The position numbers and the translations under genes were made by a program. A model generated the notes under the pieces. That model was not told where the DNA came from, ran no database searches, and was given only the letters and a program-made list of their open reading frames with translations. A stretch of 64,000 nt of DNA from Gammaproteobacteria bacterium (GTDB lineage Bacteria > Pseudomonadota > Gammaproteobacteria > GCA-002705445 > GCA-002716945): the NCBI GenBank assembly GCA_030835925.1, contig JAURQW010000012.1, positions 3,500 through 67,499 of the forward strand, given 5' to 3'. Position 1 is the stretch's first letter, and each line of letters starts with the position of its first letter. Shown in pieces: positions 2,053 to 55,954 of the stretch.

Positions 2053-2544
2053 ATGTGGGTTGTTGCAAAAACAAAAGGGGGCCAAGAGAATAGGGCATTT
2101 CAAAACCTTGATAATCAGGGCTTTGATGTCTTTTTGCCACGTTTTGAAACAAAAAAATTTAAAAATAATGCTTGGCTGTCTCATCATGAGTTGATGTTTC
2201 CAGGGTATATATTCATCAATCTTGACTGTAATTATAATAAAGCACATAAAATTAATAATACATTAGGTATTTACAAACTCTTGATGGATTCTTACTCGGG
2301 TTCCCCATCGATTTTACCAGATAATATTATAGATGAAATAAAAGATAATATAAATAAATCATTATATATCAATAATATAAATGTAGGTGATAATGTAGTT
2401 TATACTAAAGGCACCTTATCGAATATCGTTGGCACTGTGATTGAGATGTCTAGTAAATCAAGAATAAGATTATTGATTGATTTGATTAGCACAAAACAAG
2501 AGGTCTCTGTTGACCCCTCGGACATACAAAGAGTATACGGTTAG
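2053..2544 (+). CDS. rfaH: NusG-family operon-specific antiterminator, RfaH-like
   Basis: 163 aa with a NusG-NTD-like N-terminus (WVVAKTKGGQENRAFQNL..FLPRF..MFPGYIFINLD) and a KOW-like C-terminus (VGDNVVYTKGTLSNIVGTVIE). An exact ops site lies 43 nt downstream. Confidence 0.75.
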   Translation: MWVVAKTKGGQENRAFQNLDNQGFDVFLPRFETKKFKNNAWLSHHELMFPGYIFINLDCNYNKAHKINNTLGIYKLLMDSYSGSPSILPDNIIDEIKDNINKSLYINNINVGDNVVYTKGTLSNIVGTVIEMSSKSRIRLLIDLISTKQEVSVDPSDIQRVYG

Positions 2545-2564
2545 CTAAAACGTATATTTTTAAA

Positions 2565-2587
2565 ACATCTAATTTTCTGTTAGATGT
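2565..2587 (+). promoter_or_regulatory. Hairpin (ACATCTA - 9 nt loop - TAGATGT) abutting the 5' side of ops; JUMPstart-like leader structure
   Basis: Perfect 7-bp inverted repeat read directly from the sequence, ending 1 nt before ops. Confidence 0.4.
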
Positions 2588-2599
2588 GGCGGTAGCGTG
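2588..2599 (+). promoter_or_regulatory. ops: ops (operon polarity suppressor) element GGCGGTAGCGTG, the RfaH recruitment site
   Basis: Exact 12/12 match to the enterobacterial ops/JUMPstart core as I recall it. It is a GC-rich 12-mer in very AT-rich DNA, placed between the rfaH-like gene and the first glycan gene. Confidence 0.8.
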
Positions 2600-2612
2600 G
2601 AAAAAAATATTA

Positions 2613-3527
2613 ATGATGACTGTTTCTGTAGTTATACCTTTTTATAATGAGTCTGAGTCTATTAAAGAAACTCTTTCTTGTCTAGATAATCAAGAATATT
2701 CACCACATGAAGTTATATTCGTTGATTCTGGGTCAACTGATAATACATCGGAAATTATAAATAACCATATTGATAAGCTCAATAAAAATAATTATCGAGT
2801 AATTTACTGCGGTGAAATGAGTCCAAGTTCGTCATTAAATAGAGGGATAAAAGAATCAAGTTCAGAATTAATTGCATATATTGATTGCGGATTGAATATA
2901 CCGTCTAATTGGTTAATTGAAAGTCTTGGAATTATGGAAACACATAATTGCGGTATTGTGTCTTTGCGAATAAAAACTAACGGTACTTCACTCATAGACA
3001 AATCATTTATTGCACAAACATATGGTCTAGCGTCACATACAACATGTTTACCAGGCTCTTTGATAAAGAAAAGCGTGATAGAACAAATAGGGGGTTTGAT
3101 AACTAAGACTAGAGCGAGTTATGATGTTGATTTTATAAATAAAATTAAAAAAAACAATATTAAGAGAGTTATTAATACAAAAACAATAATAAATTACTTT
3201 GGTGTTAATTATGCAGATAATTTAATATCGGGCTCAAAGAAAGTATATAGTTATTCGTTAAACGCTTGGAATGCAGAAGGCGATTATAAACCATACATTT
3301 ATCTGCTGAGTTTAAGTGTACTTTTTATATCATATATATATGATTTACACTATCATGCCATAATTGCTTATTTCGCTCTGCGGGGCTACATAACTCCTAT
3401 TATAAAATCAAAAATAATATCATTTTTTAGTGAACCATCTTTACTATTTACCATGCCGATTACTGGTTTAATTATAGATGTTAGTAGGTTAACAGGTTAC
3501 ATCAAGTCTTATAAATTTCATGACTAA
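2613..3527 (+). CDS. Family-2 glycosyltransferase with C-terminal membrane segments (GtrB/ArnC-like polyprenyl-phosphate glycosyltransferase architecture)
   Basis: VSVVIPFYNESESIKETL and VIFVDSGSTDNT (GT2 signature region), plus hydrophobic C-terminal stretches. I moved the start from GTG 2586 to ATG 2613 so that ops lies in the leader. Confidence 0.7.
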   Translation: MMTVSVVIPFYNESESIKETLSCLDNQEYSPHEVIFVDSGSTDNTSEIINNHIDKLNKNNYRVIYCGEMSPSSSLNRGIKESSSELIAYIDCGLNIPSNWLIESLGIMETHNCGIVSLRIKTNGTSLIDKSFIAQTYGLASHTTCLPGSLIKKSVIEQIGGLITKTRASYDVDFINKIKKNNIKRVINTKTIINYFGVNYADNLISGSKKVYSYSLNAWNAEGDYKPYIYLLSLSVLFISYIYDLHYHAIIAYFALRGYITPIIKSKIISFFSEPSLLFTMPITGLIIDVSRLTGYIKSYKFHD

Positions 3528-3918
3528 TAGAAAAAATATATCTAACTCTAAAAACTCAGATACAGATCTTGCTGTATTAAGATATTTAGAAAATAAACAA
3601 ACAATTAGTCAACGTGAGTTATCTAATGATCTAGGTATAAGCTTAGGCAAGATTAATTTTATATTAAAAGCACTGATTAAAAAGGGAATAGTAAAAGCTA
3701 AGAACTTCAAAAATAATAATAATAAAAGTGTGTATGCATACTATCTTACTGCAGATGGTCTTAATGAAAAAGCTAAATTGACTCTTGAGTTTTTTAAAAG
3801 AAAAAATACAGAATACAATAAATTAAAAAAAGAATTAAAAGATTTACAGCAAGAGATTACACTCTTAGATAGAAGAAAATCAAAAGAAAATATTACTGAT
3901 ATTGATATAGATGAATAA
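3520..3918 (+). CDS. MarR-type winged-helix regulator of the EPS-locus-associated kind
   Basis: 132 aa with a wHTH (LAVLRYLENKQTISQRELSNDLGISLGKINFILKALIKKGIV) and a coiled-coil tail. It overlaps both neighbours by 8 nt. Confidence 0.65.
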   Translation: MTNRKNISNSKNSDTDLAVLRYLENKQTISQRELSNDLGISLGKINFILKALIKKGIVKAKNFKNNNNKSVYAYYLTADGLNEKAKLTLEFFKRKNTEYNKLKKELKDLQQEITLLDRRKSKENITDIDIDE

Positions 3919-4750
3919 TAGCTTGATTATCACTGGAGCCTCGGGTTTTATTGGTTCTCATATAATGAGTTTTATAAAATCTCTTAATATTTCATTTTTA
4001 GGATTTTCAAGACAGAAGAATTACAATAATCTTCAATGGACAAAAGATTATATGGACATAGGTTTAAAAGCAGACAAGAATCAAATTTGTATACATCTTG
4101 CTGGCAATAATATTATAAGCTCCATGGATGATAGTGAGATTGAGCTAACAAAATATTTGGCTGATTTATTTGGCTACAATTTAGTATACATCTCTAGTTC
4201 TTATGTATATGGTAAAAATCATAAATCACTTATAACTGAATTAGATAGCCTAGATGCGGTTAATAATTATTCAAGAAGAAAAGCTCTTTGTGAGGAAATC
4301 GTTATCAACAATTCTGGAAGCGTGCTTAGACTATCAAATGTTTATGGCTCTGGGATGACTAATAATATTTTTAATCATATTTATAAAGAATTTATGAGTC
4401 AGAATAAAATAGTGAAAATTAATAATGCTCTAAACACCAGAGATTTCATACACGTAAGTGATATATGTTCAGCTATTACAACCTACATAACAGACATAAA
4501 ATCTGGTATTTATAATATAGGTACAGGAGAGGGAACTTCAATCAAAGACTTATGTAATATCTTTGCTGCTAAACTCAAAGTTAATAAATCAGCATATCAT
4601 GTCAAATCAATTTCTCAAGACGATACTATGCTGGTCTTAGATTCTAATAAGTTTCGTAATAGCTATAATTGGGAACCTAAAATAAATATAGATGCTGGAA
4701 TAGCATCTTGGGTAAAAGATTATAAAAGAGAGTTATCAGATGCTAAATAA
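3911..4750 (+). CDS. NAD-dependent sugar epimerase/dehydratase (extended SDR)
   Basis: IITGASGFIGSHI glycine-rich NAD motif and YSRRK (YxxxK). Confidence 0.7.
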   Translation: MNNSLIITGASGFIGSHIMSFIKSLNISFLGFSRQKNYNNLQWTKDYMDIGLKADKNQICIHLAGNNIISSMDDSEIELTKYLADLFGYNLVYISSSYVYGKNHKSLITELDSLDAVNNYSRRKALCEEIVINNSGSVLRLSNVYGSGMTNNIFNHIYKEFMSQNKIVKINNALNTRDFIHVSDICSAITTYITDIKSGIYNIGTGEGTSIKDLCNIFAAKLKVNKSAYHVKSISQDDTMLVLDSNKFRNSYNWEPKINIDAGIASWVKDYKRELSDAK

Positions 4751-38799: not shown

Positions 38800-39218
38800 T
38801 AGAAGAAATAATTATCACCCATTTAAAAAGGATACACGTATCTAACGGAGATGTTCTTCATGGGATGAAAAAGACAGATGATGGATACACTGATTTTGGA
38901 GAGATTTATTTTTCAAATATTTTAAAAGATAAAATAAAAGCTTGGAAAATCCATAAAAAAATGACATTAAATCTAATAGTACCATCTGGCTCAGTGCGTT
39001 TTAATTTTATTCAAGTTAGCTCAGAGGGATTGATAGATAATCGCATGGAGATCACAGTCTCTAGTGACAACTATTGCAGGATCACAGTACCGCCAAATAT
39101 AATTTTTGGATTTAAGGGAATAGGAAAGGATGCAAACATTATTGCAAATATTGCAGATATTACTCATAGTGACGATGAAGTGAAAAAAATTGATATTAAT
39201 AAATTTGAGTTCAAATAA
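38796..39218 (+). CDS. Small RmlC-like cupin (NDP-sugar epimerase / keto-isomerase candidate)
   Basis: 140 aa with a cupin-like FGEIYFSNILKDKIKAWKIHKKMTLNLIVPSGSVRF, located between rfbG and rfbF. Confidence 0.5.
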   Translation: MIEEIIITHLKRIHVSNGDVLHGMKKTDDGYTDFGEIYFSNILKDKIKAWKIHKKMTLNLIVPSGSVRFNFIQVSSEGLIDNRMEITVSSDNYCRITVPPNIIFGFKGIGKDANIIANIADITHSDDEVKKIDINKFEFK

Positions 39219-43549: not shown

Positions 43550-44448
43550 AATTTTCAATTATTTTGCCAACTTATAATAGAGCAGAATTGTTCCTCAAAA
43601 GAGCAATTGATTCAGTGGTTAGGCAGTCGTATAAAGATTGGGAGCTAATAATAGTTGATAACAATTCCACAGATAGTACAAAAGACTTGGTTGGCTCTTA
43701 TTCAGGTAATAATATTCGTTTATATAGTATCCAAAACGAAGGAAATATTGCAAAATCGCGCAATTTAGGTATATCAAAAGCGAAAGGTGAATTTATTGCA
43801 TTTTTAGATTCTGATGACTATTGGAGAGCAGATAAACTTGAGAAATGCATAAGTATTTTAAAAAATAATCCAGGCTATGACGGTGTTTGTCATGCTGAAT
43901 ACTGGATAGATGCTACAAGGTGTCAACAAATTAGAAAATATGGACCTGAAAGATATTTTAATTATAAACAACTACTTGTTAGAGGGAATTCAGTATCATT
44001 ATCTGCGATGATTGTTAATAGAGATAATATAATTACTGTAAAGAGTTTTTCAGAGAACAGAGAAATGATAACAGCTGAAGATTATGATTTATGGATAAAA
44101 TTAGCAAAGAATAACACAGAGATTTTTTTTACTAATGAGCCTTTAGGGTATTACCAGATACATGAGGATTCAGAGAGTTCGAATATATCAAGAAATACAA
44201 AAGCTATTATTTATGTTATAGAAAGCCACTTGAAAGATCAAAAAAAGATATTAAACAAAGCTCTTGCAAACTGCTGGAAAAATACTGGTAAACAATTTTA
44301 CTTAAATTGTTTAAATTATGAATCATATAGGTCATATCTAAAATCATTAAAATATAATTGCATGAATATAAAGATATATTTATTAATTTTAACCACTCTT
44401 GTGCCAGCCAAGTTTTATAAATATATAGTGAATAAGAAAAATGACTAA
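43546..44448 (+). CDS. Family-2 glycosyltransferase
   Basis: FSIILPTYNRAELFLKRAIDSV..QSYKDWELIIVDNNSTDST and FLDSDD. Confidence 0.8.
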   Translation: MKFSIILPTYNRAELFLKRAIDSVVRQSYKDWELIIVDNNSTDSTKDLVGSYSGNNIRLYSIQNEGNIAKSRNLGISKAKGEFIAFLDSDDYWRADKLEKCISILKNNPGYDGVCHAEYWIDATRCQQIRKYGPERYFNYKQLLVRGNSVSLSAMIVNRDNIITVKSFSENREMITAEDYDLWIKLAKNNTEIFFTNEPLGYYQIHEDSESSNISRNTKAIIYVIESHLKDQKKILNKALANCWKNTGKQFYLNCLNYESYRSYLKSLKYNCMNIKIYLLILTTLVPAKFYKYIVNKKND

Positions 44449-47266
44449 ACTAAAAATATCATATTCATATTTAATTGGTGATCTTTTGCATTATGGACAT
44501 CTTGAATTACTTAAAAAAGCAAAAGCAAAATGCGACTTACATATATGTGGAATAATATCTGATAAAGCTGCTAATGAATGGCAGTCACCTTTAATATGTA
44601 ATTATATAGAGCGAAGTAGCGTTATACAGCAAATAAGATATGTTGACAAGATTATGCAACAAGATTCCTTAGATCCATCTAGTAATCTTAAAAAAATAAT
44701 AAAAAAATATCCTCAGGCTACAATTTATTTTTTTCCGATGTATCAAAAATGGAATTTTCTACCTGGAACTAAAATAGTTAATGAGATTGGAGGAAAAATT
44801 ATTAAACCAGGTTTTTATAATAAACTTTCTCGTAGTAACATCAGAAGAGCCTTCAAAGAATCACCGAAAGTTAGCAAGATTACACATTCATTAAATAATC
44901 AAGTAAATTATAACCATGCATTTGATATAAATACGACTAAAGCTGAAACATTAAAAAATCTATCTAATCAATTAAAGAAATCATACATAGAAAAACTATT
45001 CACATTTAATATAAAAGAGTGGAGAGGTTCATCTGATAAAATCATTAAAAAATCACAGGAAATATTTGGTACAAAGAAAGTAGTGGTTAGGAGCTCATCA
45101 TTGTCTGAGGATATGATGAGTACTTCTGGTGCTGGGTTATATCATTCAGAACTTAATGTAGATAACTCTGATAGAAAGCAGTTAAAGCATTCAATAAACA
45201 AAGTGAAGCAGAGTTACAATAAAGGCAAAAAGGATCAATTTGATCAGATTATTATACAAGAACAATCTAATGATGTGATTATTAGCGGTGTATGTCTGAC
45301 ACGTAATCTTAAGAATAACTCTCCGTACTACATTATTAATTTTGATGATAAATCTATGCAAACAGATACTGTAACTGGTGGTCTAGTTGGTGATAAGGTA
45401 GAAATAATAAGAAATATTGAGATTAAAAGTATTCCATCTAAATGGAAAAACTTGATTATTTCTATAAGAGAAATAGAAGATCTTCTCCCCAATCTAGCTC
45501 TAGATATAGAGTTTGCGATCAACAAGAAAAAACAAATAATTATTTTTCAGGTAAGACCATTAGCCGCTAACTCAAAATACCCTGAGCATAATGATTTAAA
45601 AATATTTGATAACCATAAAAAAATCAAAAATATATATAAAAAGGAAATAAATCACCTCGGTGATGGTGAAGTCATATTGAGTGATATGGGTTTCTGGAAC
45701 CCTGCAGAGCTTATCGGAGATAGGCCTTTACCGTTAGGTGAATCATTGTTTAACAAGATTCTGATGGATGATGTATGGAATTCATCACTACTATCTCTTG
45801 GGTATAGTAAATCTGAAGGCTCTCTTAGTACAAAGATAGGAAATAAGCCTTATATTAATTTAAAAAAGTCTTTTGAAACATTAACCCCAAAAGATATTCC
45901 TAATTCTCTAAAAGATAAGCTAATCAAGTATTATAATAAAAAACTTAAGAGTTATCCTCAATATCATGATAAGTTAGAATTTGAGGTTGTGCTAAGTTCT
46001 TTCAATATGAATACTGATAACTCAATGGATGAGTTATTACAAAATAATTTTAATATTGATGAAATTACTCAAATCCGCAATTCTTTATATAAACTGACCA
46101 AGAATATTTTCAAAGATTATAAAGATATTTTTTCTAATGATACAACTTCAATAAAAAAGCTTGTTAAGAATTTTAAATATATCCCAACAACTAAAGCTAA
46201 TTGGAAGAGAAATCTTTTAACGCTAGTAACATATATAGATCAAATTCGAAAGAATGGTACGCCACAATTCTGTAGAGCAGCAAGATTAACATTTATTGCC
46301 AAAGATTTTATAAAAAGTTTTATTGATCATAATCCTAAATATAAAGAAGACTGTGAATTACTGTTATCAAAAATAAAAACTGTATCGTCTACTATGCAGG
46401 ATGACTTGGCTATGGCAAGTGACACTAAGAAGAAAGCAAGATTCTTTAAAAAGTATGGTCATCTAAGACCTGATACATATAACATTAATAATAAAAGATA
46501 TGATCAGATGAAAAACTTATTATCAAAAAACATAAGGAAAAATATAAAGGATAATAGAAAATCTGTTAATCCTGAATTAGTAAAAGATATTAATATATCT
46601 CTAAAAGAATTAAAACTTAATATCGATTATAAAGGGTTTATAAACTTTCTTGAATCATCTATAAAAAATCGAGAAAAATATAAATTTGAATATAGCAAGG
46701 TTATAAGCGGAATTATAGAAATGATTGCTGATATTGGTAATGTAATCAATATCAACAGACAAGATTTTTCCTACATAGATTATCAGACTCTTAAAATAAT
46801 TTTGAATTCAGATATGGATGTTAGTTCAGCGCATGAATTATGCACATCATTGATAATTTCTAGACGTAATAATCATGAAGTCTTAAATCATATCTCGTTA
46901 CCGTCATTGCTATTTAATCTTCAGGGTCTTACTGTCATAGCTAATCATACAACAGTGCCAAATTTCATTACTGACGAAATAGTTGAATCAAAAGTTATTA
47001 ATATAAAGATGCAAGAAACAACAAACATCACTAATAAAATAGTTGTAATAGATAATGCTGATCCTGGTTATGATTGGATATTCTCATATAAGATAAAAGG
47101 CTTGATAACTTTATATGGTGGGTTAGCGTCGCATATGGCAATTAGGTGTGCTGAATTTAATATACCTGCTGCGATTGGTTGTGGTTCATTAGTTTATGAA
47201 ACAGTAAACACTTCTGAAAAAATATTGCTTGATTGTAAAAATAAAAAAATCAAGAAGATAATATGA
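44441..47266 (+). CDS. Fusion protein: TagD-like cytidylyltransferase domain + PPDK/PEP-synthase-type ATP-grasp + phosphohistidine swivel domain (Cj1418 glutamine-kinase-like)
   Basis: aa 1-~135 carry GDLLHYGHLELLKKAK (HxGH). aa ~165-235 carry TKAETLKNL...VVVRSSSLSEDMMSTSGAGLY (PPDK_N signature). The C-terminus carries DNADPGYDW...LYGGLASHMAIRCAEFNIPAAIGCG (mobile His domain; His codon at 47132-47134). Confidence 0.7.
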   Translation: MTKLKISYSYLIGDLLHYGHLELLKKAKAKCDLHICGIISDKAANEWQSPLICNYIERSSVIQQIRYVDKIMQQDSLDPSSNLKKIIKKYPQATIYFFPMYQKWNFLPGTKIVNEIGGKIIKPGFYNKLSRSNIRRAFKESPKVSKITHSLNNQVNYNHAFDINTTKAETLKNLSNQLKKSYIEKLFTFNIKEWRGSSDKIIKKSQEIFGTKKVVVRSSSLSEDMMSTSGAGLYHSELNVDNSDRKQLKHSINKVKQSYNKGKKDQFDQIIIQEQSNDVIISGVCLTRNLKNNSPYYIINFDDKSMQTDTVTGGLVGDKVEIIRNIEIKSIPSKWKNLIISIREIEDLLPNLALDIEFAINKKKQIIIFQVRPLAANSKYPEHNDLKIFDNHKKIKNIYKKEINHLGDGEVILSDMGFWNPAELIGDRPLPLGESLFNKILMDDVWNSSLLSLGYSKSEGSLSTKIGNKPYINLKKSFETLTPKDIPNSLKDKLIKYYNKKLKSYPQYHDKLEFEVVLSSFNMNTDNSMDELLQNNFNIDEITQIRNSLYKLTKNIFKDYKDIFSNDTTSIKKLVKNFKYIPTTKANWKRNLLTLVTYIDQIRKNGTPQFCRAARLTFIAKDFIKSFIDHNPKYKEDCELLLSKIKTVSSTMQDDLAMASDTKKKARFFKKYGHLRPDTYNINNKRYDQMKNLLSKNIRKNIKDNRKSVNPELVKDINISLKELKLNIDYKGFINFLESSIKNREKYKFEYSKVISGIIEMIADIGNVININRQDFSYIDYQTLKIILNSDMDVSSAHELCTSLIISRRNNHEVLNHISLPSLLFNLQGLTVIANHTTVPNFITDEIVESKVINIKMQETTNITNKIVVIDNADPGYDWIFSYKIKGLITLYGGLASHMAIRCAEFNIPAAIGCGSLVYETVNTSEKILLDCKNKKIKKII

Positions 47267-53360: not shown

Positions 53361-54848
53361 ATGACAAATGCACTTATAATACTTGGTAATCAGCTATTCC
53401 CTGTTAAACATATAAGGAAAGTTAAGCCTGACTGTGTATACATGAGAGAAGATTATCAGTTATGTACTTACCAGAAACATCATAAACATAAAATAACACT
53501 ATTTTTATCAGCAATGAGATCATATAAAGATGACTTAATAAGCTCTAAAATTGATGTACATTACCATCAACTAAACCCAGGTTTAACAGGTACTTATACA
53601 TCATACTTAATTAAGTTTATTAATAAAGAAAAGATTCAAGAAATAAGCTTTTTCGAAATAGAGGACAAATGGTTTGAAAAAGAGATGCTTAGGTTAAAAA
53701 AGGTGTGCAATATTAAAGTCAATATCATAAAAACACCTATGTTTCTAACAAATAGAGATGAATTCCTAGAGCTCTCCCCTCCTAGTAAAACACTACCTAA
53801 ATACAAGATGGCATCCTTCTATATAGCTCAGCGCAAAAAAATGAACATATTACTAGAGAATGGTAAGCCTAAAGGTGGTAAATGGTCCCATGATAAAGAG
53901 AATAGGAAGAAAATACCAAAAAACATCGATGTACCTATATTTAGAAATTATAAAGATACTACTCATACAAAAGACATAAAAAAGATTATAAATAAAGTTT
54001 TTCCAGATAATTATGGAGAAACTGATGACTTCAACTACCCTACTACCAGAAAAACCGCGCTAGCTATGCTTGATCATTTTATTTCCGAAAAACTCAATGA
54101 ATTTGGCGATTATGAGGACTCTGTTGATGGACGTTCACCTTTTTGGTTTCATTCTGTTCTCAGTCCTCTTCTGAATATTGGGCTTATTATTCCAGATGAT
54201 ATTATTTCAAGAGTACTAAAGAAAAAGAACATAAAAATAAACTCCTACGAAGGGTTCATTAGACAAATTATTGGTTGGAGAGAATTTATGAGAGGAATAT
54301 ATCAACAAGATGCAAAAATTATGTCTAACTCTAATTTCTTCGGCAATAATCGCAAAATGAAAAATTCTTGGTATGATGGTTCTACTGGCTTACTACCTTT
54401 AGATCAAAGCATTAAAAGCACATTAAAATATTCTTATGCGCATCACATTGAAAGATTAATGATTCAGGCTAATATAATGAACTTATGTGAAATTGACCCA
54501 AAAATTGTTTACAACTGGTTTATGGAGATGTACATAGACTCATCTGACTGGGTTATGACACCTAATGTTTATAGCATGGGTTTATTTGCTGATGGAGGCA
54601 TAATGGCCACCAAACCTTATCTGTGTGGTTCAAATTATATGCTGAAAATGATGGATTTTAAAAAAGGCGATTGGTGTAAAGTTTTAGATGGACTATATTG
54701 GAGATTTATTGATAAGCATCTAAAATTTTTTAAATCTAACCCAAGATTAAGCATGATGGCGGCAATACTTGGTAAGATGGATAAAAAGAGGAAAGATGAA
54801 CTTTTTATTCTTGCTAATAAATTTATTGAGGAAAATACAAAATCATGA
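53361..54848 (+). CDS. Cryptochrome/photolyase-related protein (COG3046, FeS-BCP / bacterial (6-4) photolyase-like)
   Basis: ALIILGNQLFP N-terminus, WREFMRG and a C-terminal Cys-containing region (PYLCGSNYMLKM...GDWC); 495 aa. Confidence 0.65.
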   Translation: MTNALIILGNQLFPVKHIRKVKPDCVYMREDYQLCTYQKHHKHKITLFLSAMRSYKDDLISSKIDVHYHQLNPGLTGTYTSYLIKFINKEKIQEISFFEIEDKWFEKEMLRLKKVCNIKVNIIKTPMFLTNRDEFLELSPPSKTLPKYKMASFYIAQRKKMNILLENGKPKGGKWSHDKENRKKIPKNIDVPIFRNYKDTTHTKDIKKIINKVFPDNYGETDDFNYPTTRKTALAMLDHFISEKLNEFGDYEDSVDGRSPFWFHSVLSPLLNIGLIIPDDIISRVLKKKNIKINSYEGFIRQIIGWREFMRGIYQQDAKIMSNSNFFGNNRKMKNSWYDGSTGLLPLDQSIKSTLKYSYAHHIERLMIQANIMNLCEIDPKIVYNWFMEMYIDSSDWVMTPNVYSMGLFADGGIMATKPYLCGSNYMLKMMDFKKGDWCKVLDGLYWRFIDKHLKFFKSNPRLSMMAAILGKMDKKRKDELFILANKFIEENTKS

Positions 54849-55600
54849 AAAATATTATAAAAAAATTAATGAAGCTGTTTGGATATAAAATAATCAAGAT
54901 TAATAAAGTTGGTTATCCTATTGATTATTGTAATGATTTTGTAAGTGAGTTTAAAGCTATAGAACCATTTACGATGACTAGTATTGAAAGAATATATGCC
55001 TTGAAATCTGCGGTAGAATACATAGCTAAAAATAATATCCGTGGATCTTTTGTGGAATGTGGTGTTTGGAAAGGTGGGTCTTGCATGATGATGGCAAATA
55101 CTTTAGTAGAAAATGGGCAATTTGAAAGGGAAATATGGCTGTATGATACATTTGATGGTATGACAAATCCTACAGATGATGATATTGAGGTTGAGACTAA
55201 AATAAAGGGCATGGAACTCCTTAAGGATCTTGATAAAACTACTGATAAATATAATATGTGGGCATATGCTCCAAAGGATCTTGTCATTAAAAATATGAGA
55301 TCTACGGCGTATCCAGAAAAAAACATTAAATATATAGAAGGCAAAGTTGAGCAAACCCTGCCTGAAAATACTCCAGGAGAAATTGCGCTCCTAAGATTAG
55401 ATACTGATTGGTATGAATCTACAAAGATCGAACTAGAAGCACTATACCCTCTTCTGGTCAGAGGCGGAGTACTAATAATAGATGATTATGGTCACTTTCA
55501 TGGAGCAAAAAAAGCTGTTGATGAGTATTTTCATAGTATTAATGAAGAGCCGCTTATGCATCGAATTGACTATTCAGGGAGAATGATCGTAAAAAGATAA
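54845..55600 (+). CDS. TylF/MycF-family SAM-dependent O-methyltransferase
   Basis: GSFVECGVWKGGSCMMMA, LRLDTDWYEST and LIIDDYGHF motifs typical of macrocin-O-methyltransferase-like enzymes. Confidence 0.75.
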   Translation: MKNIIKKLMKLFGYKIIKINKVGYPIDYCNDFVSEFKAIEPFTMTSIERIYALKSAVEYIAKNNIRGSFVECGVWKGGSCMMMANTLVENGQFEREIWLYDTFDGMTNPTDDDIEVETKIKGMELLKDLDKTTDKYNMWAYAPKDLVIKNMRSTAYPEKNIKYIEGKVEQTLPENTPGEIALLRLDTDWYESTKIELEALYPLLVRGGVLIIDDYGHFHGAKKAVDEYFHSINEEPLMHRIDYSGRMIVKR

Positions 55601-55947
55601 TGATTAGAGTTTATTATAATCAAAAATGCACTGTATGTAATATTGAAATATCCCATTATAAAAAGAAAAATATTTCTAATATAATTTGGGTTGACATTAA
55701 TAACCCATCGAAAGATCTAAAAATCTTAGGAAAATCGCATAAAGAAATGATGAGGAGGCTTCATGTGATAGATGGTAAAACCATTTACTCTGGTGCAAGC
55801 GCATTTATAATATTATGGAGCAATTTACCTAATTACAAGTTATTAAGTAAAATTCTAAATTTACCTATAATTTTTCAAGTTTTTAATATCTTCTATGAAT
55901 TTATTGCTTTTTTGTTATTTATAAAAAATAATCGTGGTTTAACTTAA
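55600..55947 (+). CDS. DCC-family thiol-disulfide oxidoreductase (DUF393)
   Basis: An N-terminal CxxC (YYNQKCTVCN) and a small size of 115 aa. Confidence 0.6.
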   Translation: MIRVYYNQKCTVCNIEISHYKKKNISNIIWVDINNPSKDLKILGKSHKEMMRRLHVIDGKTIYSGASAFIILWSNLPNYKLLSKILNLPIIFQVFNIFYEFIAFLLFIKNNRGLT

Positions 55948-55954
55948 AATTAAT

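Follow-up and report, generated by a model that had tools for sequence, protein, structure and literature searches.

Herein, we describe the head of a surface-glycan gene cluster in a 64-kb stretch of genomic DNA from an uncultured gammaproteobacterium (contig JAURQW010000012.1; the whole stretch is called the window below). A gene for an RfaH-like paralog of NusG (2053-2544, + strand) lies directly upstream of an exact enterobacterial ops element, GGCGGTAGCGTG (2588-2599, + strand), with a JUMPstart-type RNA hairpin between them and a long array of glycan genes behind them. The order of these elements, the core of ops and the distance from the stop codon to ops were conserved in related loci. 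We consider it likely, with a probability of roughly 0.7, that they constitute a processivity switch of the RfaH/ops type, self-contained and placed at the fixed head of a surface-glycan operon that is otherwise hypervariable in uncultured marine Gammaproteobacteria.

An RfaH-like paralog of NusG precedes ops

The open reading frame (ORF) 2053-2544 encodes a protein of 163 aa, which the initial annotation had regarded as RfaH-like with a NusG-like N-terminus and a KOW-like C-terminus. The N-terminal domain matched the Pfam NusG family (PF02357) with an E value of 5.8e-16, confirming the first of these two assignments. The second was supported in part: the KOW match in the Pfam scan (E = 0.0095) fell short of the cut-off, yet the alignment with E. 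coli RfaH, the top PDB sequence match of the paralog, ran from residue 2 to residue 157 and included the C-terminal domain. The identity to E. coli RfaH was 25%. Among the NCBIfam models, RfaH ranked first (82.4 bits), followed by UpxY (59.4), LoaP (52.1) and NusG (49), and all four scored the paralog under their curated cut-offs (100 bits for UpxY, NF033644; 125 bits for LoaP, NF033641). The RfaH-like character of the ORF was thus upheld both by the ranking of the models and by the top PDB match.

In the AlphaFold2 (AF2) models, the N-terminal domain was predicted with a pLDDT of ~90 and had a TM-score of 0.84, normalised to target length, to the RfaH chain 8pen_P. The predicted C-terminal domain depended on the alignment supplied. 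With a 24-sequence family alignment, it was helical at a pLDDT of 27-53, and the whole model was closest to autoinhibited RfaH (5ond_A and 8pfg_P; 150 aligned columns). With an 82-sequence alignment that included remote NusG-like proteins, the model consisted of an NGN domain and a C-terminal barrel of five strands at a pLDDT of ~80, resembling activated RfaH and NusG. The two-domain NGN + KOW layout in ~160 aa could therefore be recognized from the Pfam NGN match, the alignment with RfaH and the 82-sequence model. The paralog segment RIRLLIDLI was similar to RSMLLLNLI of RfaH, and the equivalents of K10, Q13, R16 and Q24 were invariant at a family identity of at least 48%, as well as in the 24-sequence alignment. 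Judged from its sequence, the product of 2053-2544 is a divergent RfaH-like paralog of NusG.

The core of ops is invariant in related loci

The ops element begins 43 nt past the stop codon of the paralog, which ends at 2544, and it was the sole exact copy of GGCGGTAGCGTG in the window when both strands were searched. The base composition predicts 2e-4 exact copies for the whole window and 1e-7 for this gap. The coordinates of the ORF, of ops, of the spacer behind it and of the following ATGATG, as given in the initial annotation, all proved correct. The 12/12 match to the E. coli element was confirmed by a direct comparison with the rfb leader of E. coli K-12, which carries ...GCCAGGGGCGGUAGCGUG, the same 12-mer, and matches Rfam JUMPstart with 60 bits. 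As in RfaH-dependent operons, ops (GGCGGTAGnnTG) is located on the non-template strand, that is, on the same strand as the genes, in a promoter-proximal position of the target operon. If the site behaves as in E. coli, RNA polymerase should pause at T2598. The 8-nt core GCGGTAGC was not found upstream of the paralog ATG, and its only copy in the window was the one 3' of the stop codon. By itself, this core arose in ~15% of shuffles, so the real proof has to come from positional conservation in related loci.

Homologs of the paralog came solely from marine metagenomes and from metagenome-assembled genomes (MAGs) labelled Gammaproteobacteria, and loci were recovered at 99-30% identity (numbered L001 onwards). 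A scan of a genome collection yielded just two hits, both of them MAGs, with the labels 'Gammaproteobacteria bacterium' and 'uncultured Ectothiorhodospiraceae'. In the alignment of 18 lineages, the eight columns of GCGGTAGC were the only invariant ones, the mean column identity being 57%, and the core remained unchanged in lineages with a paralog identity of 30-99%. In the main family (39-99% identity), every locus reaching past the stop codon carried (G/A)GCGGTAGCGT(G/T/C) between the paralog stop and the next gene; the L030 locus stops short of the region 3' of the paralog. The relatives at 30-36% identity had the variant TGCGGTAGCTAT(T/C)(G/A) with the same core (L033, 3526-3537; L035, 4671-4682; L037, 1664-1675). 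In L035 the variant lay ~1.2 kb past the paralog, behind an epimerase gene, instead of directly after the paralog, and in both L033 and L035 the TG pause dinucleotide was displaced by 2 nt. Two classes of ops could be distinguished among the lineages, ending in ..GCGTG and ..GCTAT.

The invariant bases correspond to ops positions 2-9, whereas the flanks (positions 1 and 10-12) vary. In E. coli, ops positions 3-8 are required for the contact with RfaH and dispensable for pausing, and the flanks set the pause (PMC5995543). A constant centre with variable flanks therefore suggests that the site is read out by a protein and is not a bare pause site. These results indicate, as the initial annotation had supposed from the window itself, a genuine non-coding ops on the non-template (+) strand, and the element is conserved across 18 related lineages.

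A second ops-like site, GGCGGTACTGTG (39083-39094, - strand), with two mismatches was rejected as a chance match, because it is on the wrong strand and inside an ORF, and 0.25 such sites are expected per window.

The hairpin before ops is conserved in structure

A predicted RNA hairpin of the JUMPstart type, ACATCTAAT-TTTCT-GTTAGATGT (2565-2587, + strand), abuts G1 of ops. The hairpin had been noted at this position as a perfect 7-bp stem; the position was right, but the stem (ACATCTAA / TTAGATGT) was stronger, with 8 Watson-Crick pairs and a T.G pair as the ninth, around a loop of 5 nt. The energy predicted for the hairpin, -8.5 kcal/mol, was in the lowest 1% of same-length windows. A hairpin immediately before ops is not an oddity, since the hairpin-then-ops architecture is known for JUMPstart and was noted by Weinberg et al. 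(PMC2864571).

The hairpin ended 0-5 nt 5' of ops in 16 of 18 lineages. The exceptions were L014, where it lies 10 nt from ops, and L025, whose sole stem is imperfect and ends 1-3 nt before ops. A clear hairpin also preceded the ops variant in L033 and L035, and a weak one in L037. Across the lineages, stems of 6-10 bp and loops of 3-11 nt were found, with at least 10 unrelated stem sequences (e.g., ACATCTAA, CTAACTA, CTAATTTTT, AGATAGTA, GGTAGTA and GATAG) and loops that were likewise unrelated. The hairpin energies were in the lower tail of the genomic control windows in 18/18 lineages, and in 10/18 the control-window fraction did not exceed 0.05. The + strand fold was more stable than the - strand fold in 17/18, and G.U pairs occurred in 11/18. 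This strand bias and the G.U pairs suggest that the hairpin acts as sense RNA rather than as a double-stranded palindrome. Hence, the predicted hairpin appears to be conserved by structure and not by sequence.

The evidence for the hairpin was compiled lineage by lineage, from stem tables, energies compared with genomic control windows and the comparison of strands. In the MAFFT alignment of this region the stems were out of register, because the spacer between hairpin and ops varies. Six close hairpin-ops sequences yielded a covariance model that was too sequence-specific, giving 10-13 bits for distant lineages and spurious hits on the minus strand or to unrelated sequences. The hairpin was not followed by a U-tract, and the terminator scan gave no match at it. 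Reading it as a terminator of the minus strand was rejected, considering that the - strand fold was the weaker one in 17/18 lineages and that no minus-strand ORF of at least 120 aa converges there.

A conserved promoter and palindrome lie upstream of the paralog

A sigma-70-type promoter was predicted upstream of the paralog (1999-2027, + strand), consisting of TTGCTT (1999-2004), a 17-nt spacer and TAAATT (2022-2027). The consensus scan also gave an overlapping alternative on the + strand, TTGATA (1988-1993), 17 nt and CATAAT (2011-2016). The pattern TTG(A/C)YW-17-TA(C/A)A(T/C)T, with the -10 box ending 21-27 nt before the ATG, was present in 12/14 main-family lineages at a paralog identity of at least 39%, and the homologous box was altered in L001 and L017. 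The promoter is predicted from this positional conservation only, and such predictions are weak in AT-rich DNA. Consensus scans for promoters and terminators over the whole cluster gave counts at or below shuffle expectation.

Between the paralog stop and ops, the best promoter candidates mostly matched 7-8/12 positions, with one at 9/12 (L029), and they were non-homologous and inconsistently placed. Only L014 and L037 had a full promoter-palindrome module before ops (TTGATA-17-TAAAAT, 10/12), and no conserved promoter was found between the paralog stop and ops outside these two loci. The scan revealed no terminator-like site after the paralog and no convincing intrinsic terminator interrupting the array. 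Given a conserved promoter upstream of the paralog and none conserved before ops, the factor gene looks like the first cistron. The simplest reading, on these sequence features, is that ops sits in the first intercistronic gap of what would be a single operon.

From the -10 box to the paralog ATG extends a palindrome, TATATGTTCA-TACGG-TGAACGCATA (2028-2052, + strand). In the relatives it takes the form (T)ATATGTTCA-N5-TGAACAT(AT), i.e., ATGTTCA-N5-TGAACAT, and the sequence itself was kept in all related loci, with conservation extending to paralogs of 39% identity. Unlike the hairpin, the palindrome is thus maintained by sequence. Its probable role is that of an operator, and the loop with the 3' arm (GGTGA) may at the same time provide the Shine-Dalgarno (SD) sequence of the factor gene. 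A candidate binder is a MarR-family EPS-associated transcriptional regulator (MarR_EPS; 3520-3918, + strand; NCBIfam TIGR04176, 130.7 bits against a cut-off of 88). Its gene was found with the paralog at all loci; in the main family it lay two genes downstream, and in the distant relatives right beside the paralog.

Variants of this arrangement were seen in several loci. The promoter-palindrome module was duplicated in L008/L022, and extra palindromes were located upstream of the -35 box in L025 and L027-L029. The palindrome was also present before ops in L014/L024 and L037, and it spanned the start of the MarR gene in L033 and L035, two of the relatives at 30-36% identity.

Proposed mechanism

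According to the reading we prefer, transcription would begin at the conserved promoter 1999-2027, which the abutting palindrome probably gates, and RNA polymerase would transcribe the RfaH-like gene as the first cistron. About 54 nt beyond the stop codon, the polymerase would reach the JUMPstart-type signal, first the RNA hairpin and then ops. As in E. coli, ops in the non-template strand would halt the polymerase and expose a small DNA hairpin of GCGGTAGC to the N-terminal domain of the factor. The bound factor would then ride with the polymerase, exclude NusG and Rho and possibly recruit ribosomes. The outcome would be the expression of ~50 kb of AT-rich, SD-poor glycan genes without polarity. 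While the elements, their order and their conservation can be read directly from the aligned loci, we infer the pausing at ops, the binding of the factor, the antitermination and the role of the palindrome. The long, co-directional and tightly packed array, together with the co-inheritance of paralog, ops, first glycosyltransferase gene and MarR_EPS gene, supports such a switch.

Several results weigh against it. The paralog missed the curated scores for RfaH (82.4 against 144.5 bits and 73.3 against 124 bits; TIGR01955 / NF006534). Four side chains of E. coli RfaH contact ops, namely K10, H20, R23 and R73 (PMC5995543), and three of them are changed in the paralog (H20 to N18, R23 to N21 and R73 to L71), only K10 being retained (K8). 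In the 24-sequence family alignment, N18 and N21 were invariant and L71 was present in at least 90% of sequences. With three of four contact side chains replaced, the read-out of ops cannot be identical to that in E. coli. With AF2, the C-terminal domain was helical, as in autoinhibited RfaH, under one alignment and beta under the other. On the DNA side, promoter matches are unspecific in DNA of 30% GC, with scan counts at chance level, and a TATATT box at 2553-2558, a -10 element without a usable -35 box, could be a weak internal promoter. Finally, other ops sites or a second RfaH may exist in the genome outside the 64-kb window.

Alternative explanations

A refinement of the proposed switch would couple it to translation. 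The distance from the stop codon to the pause would synchronise the ribosome finishing the factor with its own paused polymerase. The polymerase would wait at ops while the nascent N-terminal domain, already folded, binds in cis to the very polymerase that had made its mRNA. The C-terminal 30-40 residues would still be in the ribosome, hence no autoinhibition, and the hairpin would fill or shorten the RNA between ribosome and polymerase, or lengthen the pause. A cis, co-translational recruitment of this kind has been hypothesised for ancestral RfaH (summarised in PMC13015549), which lends the idea some support.

The spacing at these loci speaks for such a hand-off. The distance from stop codon to ops was 40-47 nt (mean 42.4, standard deviation 1.8) in 14/16 lineages despite differing sequence, stem and loop, whereas the gap from ops to the next ATG was far more variable (7-25 nt, standard deviation 6.2, in relatives). 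The 20-nt spacer from the stop codon to the hairpin (2545-2564, + strand) was conserved in length (18-22 nt) and not in sequence. Shorter hairpins were paired with longer spacers to ops, the combinations being 16+5, 18+4, 19+3, 21+2 and 23+0 nt. The two loci that break the spacing, L014 (69 nt) and L037 (116 nt), are those with their own promoter-palindrome module before ops, no conserved internal promoter being found elsewhere. Nevertheless, constant spacing could be plain inheritance of a compact JUMPstart-like unit beside a stop codon. The stop-to-pause distance of 51-58 nt also exceeds the spacers of 30-38 nt in the entry titles of solved coupled complexes, unless the hairpin is looped out. 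Moreover, a diffusible factor would serve equally, and transcription-translation coupling in this organism is only assumed. We regard the hand-off as unlikely. If true, it would be a living example of the proposed ancestral co-translational recruitment in cis, already joined to a fully canonical ops.

An arrangement as in E. coli, in which a promoter within the 20-nt spacer or the 3' end of the paralog gene starts the glycan transcript at the hairpin, would make the hairpin and ops an ordinary 5' leader and the factor a diffusible trans regulator merely encoded next door. In lineages at 57-99% identity, the hairpin does have a TATATT / TATACT box 6-8 nt ahead of it, L027 and L029 have TATAAT-like boxes after the stop codon, and the promoter before ops in L014 and L037 is a good one (10/12). 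A hairpin at the 5' end would, in addition, stabilise the mRNA. However, -10-like hexamers are expected by chance at 30% GC, and outside L014 and L037 the candidates reached mostly 7-8/12, at best 9/12 (L029), with non-homologous -35 boxes at inconsistent positions. Since the scan gave no terminator in the interval from the paralog to ops, transcription from the upstream promoter would read through to ops in any case. We therefore judge an internal promoter as the source of the glycan transcript to be unlikely.

The hairpin and ops might also be a generic signal for pausing, attenuation or RNA processing that the paralog does not read, for example one that uncouples or stabilises a short factor mRNA, or a site that a different protein uses. 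This would agree with the loss, throughout the paralog family, of three of the four E. coli contact residues and with a hairpin conserved in structure only. However, the invariant part of the element is the central GCGGTAGC, which in E. coli is dispensable for pausing yet essential for RfaH, and the pause flanks are the part that varies. The element always co-occurred with the paralog, down to 30% identity, and neither a U-tract after the hairpin nor a terminator-like site in the scan was found. A signal independent of the paralog is accordingly very unlikely.

The last explanation, in which the motif is coding sequence of a glycosyltransferase gene starting at GTG 2586 or a chance GC-rich 12-mer, retains practically no probability and is already refuted by the comparison of loci. 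In the window, GTG 2586 is in frame with the family-2 glycosyltransferase (GT2) ORF, and in L008-type contigs gene callers chose an equivalent ATG, giving a 314-aa product. Across the relatives, however, ops stood in any of the phases 0, 1 and 2 with respect to the downstream ATG, and in L013, L018 and L026 its TAG formed an in-frame stop. The conserved N-terminus of the GT2 protein, M(T/K/S)(I/V)S/V-V-I-P-F/Y-Y-N-E, started at the downstream ATG in all relatives. All three phases and the in-frame TAG indicate that GTG 2586, whose proof as the real start the initial annotation had named beforehand among the findings that would overturn its reading, is not the start, and that the gene begins at ATG 2613 or 2616. 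As for chance, an exact copy has an expectation of 2e-4 per window, and the element was kept in 18 lineages.

The glycan array and its chromosomal setting

Behind ops lies an A-rich spacer of 13 nt, GAAAAAAATATTA (2600-2612, + strand), without an SD sequence, directly followed by ATGATG (2613-2618) of the first target gene. This gene (2613-3527, + strand) encodes the GT2 protein (Pfam Glycos_transf_2, 5.2e-23). The initial annotation had pointed out the missing SD sequence, but its absence is typical of the cluster: an SD-like 4-mer preceded only 15/57 cluster ORFs, against a background of 16%. Translation initiation in the cluster is thus predicted to be largely SD-independent, and because most cluster genes are without an SD sequence, its absence before the first glycan gene says little. 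For the same reason, we rejected it as evidence of ribosome recruitment.

The presumed transcription unit continues with ~50 co-directional, closely packed genes for glycan synthesis and export (3911-53309, + strand) and may reach 55600. Altogether, 57 co-directional + strand ORFs were counted from 11 to 55600 with few gaps, the largest being 207, 197 and 112 nt. The Pfam hits sampled in the array included epimerases, cytidylyltransferases, an ABC exporter and Polysacc_synt_2. A 941-aa protein (44441-47266, + strand) combines an N-terminal cytidylyltransferase-like domain with pyruvate-phosphate-dikinase / PEP-utilising domains, an unusual fusion in the cluster. At the end of the array (53361-55600, + strand) are a photolyase-related DPRP-family gene and a TylF-type O-methyltransferase gene. 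A gap of 355 nt (55601-55954), in which no convincing + strand terminator was found, separates the array from convergent genes. The far side of the window is occupied by a housekeeping block, fabG-fabF-pabC-tmk-holB.

The order WaaL-Ugd-paralog-ops-GT2-MarR_EPS was common to 13/13 main-family loci examined, with a formate-tetrahydrofolate ligase gene further upstream of the head module. The identities of the encoded proteins tracked one another (Ugd 60-87%, MarR_EPS 55-93%, GT2 47-80% and paralog 39-79%). Neither a tRNA gene nor a compositional break was found. Synteny and tracking identities indicate that the head module is inherited vertically as a fixed chromosomal unit and is not a mobile cassette. 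The suggestion of a portable cassette travelling with the island was therefore not supported.

In L026-L028, ~1.2 kb of extra sequence lies between Ugd (ending near 1740-1756) and the paralog (starting at 3001), indicating that the head region is not wholly immune to insertions. Compared with the window, L025-L029 had identities of 39-46% for the paralog, 60-63% for Ugd and 55-65% for MarR_EPS. The lower value for the paralog suggests that it evolves faster than its neighbours, yet the DNA site is invariant. L039 has a GC-rich, 25%-identical NusG paralog, downstream of which (3717-4196) are four tandem repeats, ~160 nt apart, containing CGGAATCGGCGGTAGCCGATATCCGGGACC. The repeat holds GGCGGTAGC, but on the strand opposite to the paralog, and a similar ~134-nt repeat occurs at 627-1029. 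These repeats are possibly REP-like and are probably unrelated to ops.

Comparison with known systems

The closest relative of this module is the E. coli/Salmonella system of RfaH and ops in JUMPstart (Rfam RF01707), which has the same 12-nt ops in the non-template strand and long surface-polysaccharide operons as targets. In the E. coli rfb leader, a 5-bp hairpin stands 1 nt before ops, comparable to the 0-5 nt observed here. RfaH is likewise an NGN + KOW protein of ~160 aa; it is the best match of the paralog, which keeps the equivalents of K10, Q13, R16 and Q24, whereas H20, R23 and R73 are replaced by N, N and L. The Rfam scan of 1900-2700 gave JUMPstart as the sole sensible hit. A short hairpin stands immediately 5' of GGCGGUAGCGUG, as is usual for JUMPstart, but the score was below the gathering threshold (16.5 against 35 bits), because only ops aligned and the hairpin was treated as an insertion. 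The 5' CAGYGCA box of JUMPstart is absent from the window, which reads GAGUAUA there. Thus, the thresholds of RfaH and of JUMPstart are both missed. The layout differs as well. The rfaH gene of E. coli is monocistronic, unlinked and trans-acting, whereas the factor gene here would be the first cistron of the target operon. The JUMPstart-type signal lies 5' of the first glycan gene yet 3' of the factor cistron, with the conserved promoter upstream of the factor gene. Here ops ends 13 nt before the next start codon, in contrast to ~75 nt before rfbB in E. coli K-12.

Bacteroides UpxY resembles the paralog as an operon-specific NusG paralog encoded by the first gene of its own capsular polysaccharide operon. 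Here too, the factor gene is the first gene of what appears to be its own polysaccharide operon, on one strand with the glycan genes downstream. UpxY belongs to a different phylum, and its model scored the paralog at 59 bits, under the RfaH model. The recognition determinant of UpxY is in the 5' untranslated region (UTR) upstream of upxY and is not known to be an ops. LoaP of the Firmicutes is similarly a specialised NusG paralog beside a very long biosynthetic operon, with a small transcript hairpin near the loading point. LoaP is reported to bind a specific leader RNA hairpin. Unlike the LoaP leader, the hairpin sequence here is not conserved, whereas a DNA-type ops is.

Cis-encoded RfaH-like factors are already known from IncX PrfaH and from the Shewanella and Idiomarina types. 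On the IncX3 plasmid, PrfaH is an RfaH paralog encoded by the first cistron, and recruitment at an ops-type site of non-canonical sequence, upstream in the same operon, was shown experimentally (PMC11880322). As proposed for the module described here, prfaH (PDB 9ik0) is the first gene, is co-transcribed with a long operon (virB) and has ops-type recruitment in the same unit, and the DNA-contact residues of its product also differ from those of E. coli RfaH. The sequence similarity between the two proteins is weak (E = 0.0015, residues 14-96). The site of PrfaH lies in the 5' UTR upstream of prfaH, whereas the canonical ops here is downstream of the factor gene, so that the transcription of the factor itself should be independent of ops. 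PrfaH is plasmid-borne and H-NS-controlled, while the locus here is on the chromosome and has a MarR_EPS regulator as its partner.

RfaH-like genes beside envelope-polysaccharide operons have been catalogued as clusters CL2-CL8 (PMC7593976) and as Idiomarina-type 'monomorphic' orthologs (PMC13015549, Table 1). They share with the paralog a gene in or beside a long cell-envelope polysaccharide operon and the loss of some E. coli ops-binding residues. Cluster CL4 shows an association with a helix-turn-helix regulator (Wang et al. 2020; PMC7593976), comparable to MarR_EPS here. These types were proposed to be independent of ops and reliant on synthesis in cis, whereas the canonical ops here is retained clade-wide next to the gene. 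The initial annotation had called the layout unusual. It is so in coupling the factor gene, unlike in enterics, to its own site throughout the clade; cis-encoding as such had been documented before (PMC7593976, PMC13015549, PMC11880322).

RfaH evolution is currently modelled in two stages: early paralogs, synthesised in cis, did not depend on ops, and later ones became autoinhibited, ops-reading and trans-acting (PMC7593976, PMC13015549). The paralog family described here mixes both stages, being strictly cis-encoded with an exact enterobacterial ops, a JUMPstart-type hairpin and a partial reading head, and does not fit the published dichotomy between cis-encoding with ops-independence and its opposite. 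Either the recognition of ops is older and more plastic at the protein level, or GCGGTAGC is constrained beyond those four side chains. The ~620 bp comprising promoter, factor gene, 43-nt spacer and ops offer a natural test bed for the role of synthesis beside the loading site. Since abundant uncultured marine Gammaproteobacteria carry this module at the head of their hypervariable surface-glycan region, one fixed entry point may allow any glycan genes exchanged behind it to be expressed. In comparison with the systems above, what is new is a canonical ops with a JUMPstart-type hairpin downstream of the factor cistron, at a fixed distance, conserved in a marine clade and combined with a partly replaced reading head; it is a new layout of a known control system and not a new kind of system.

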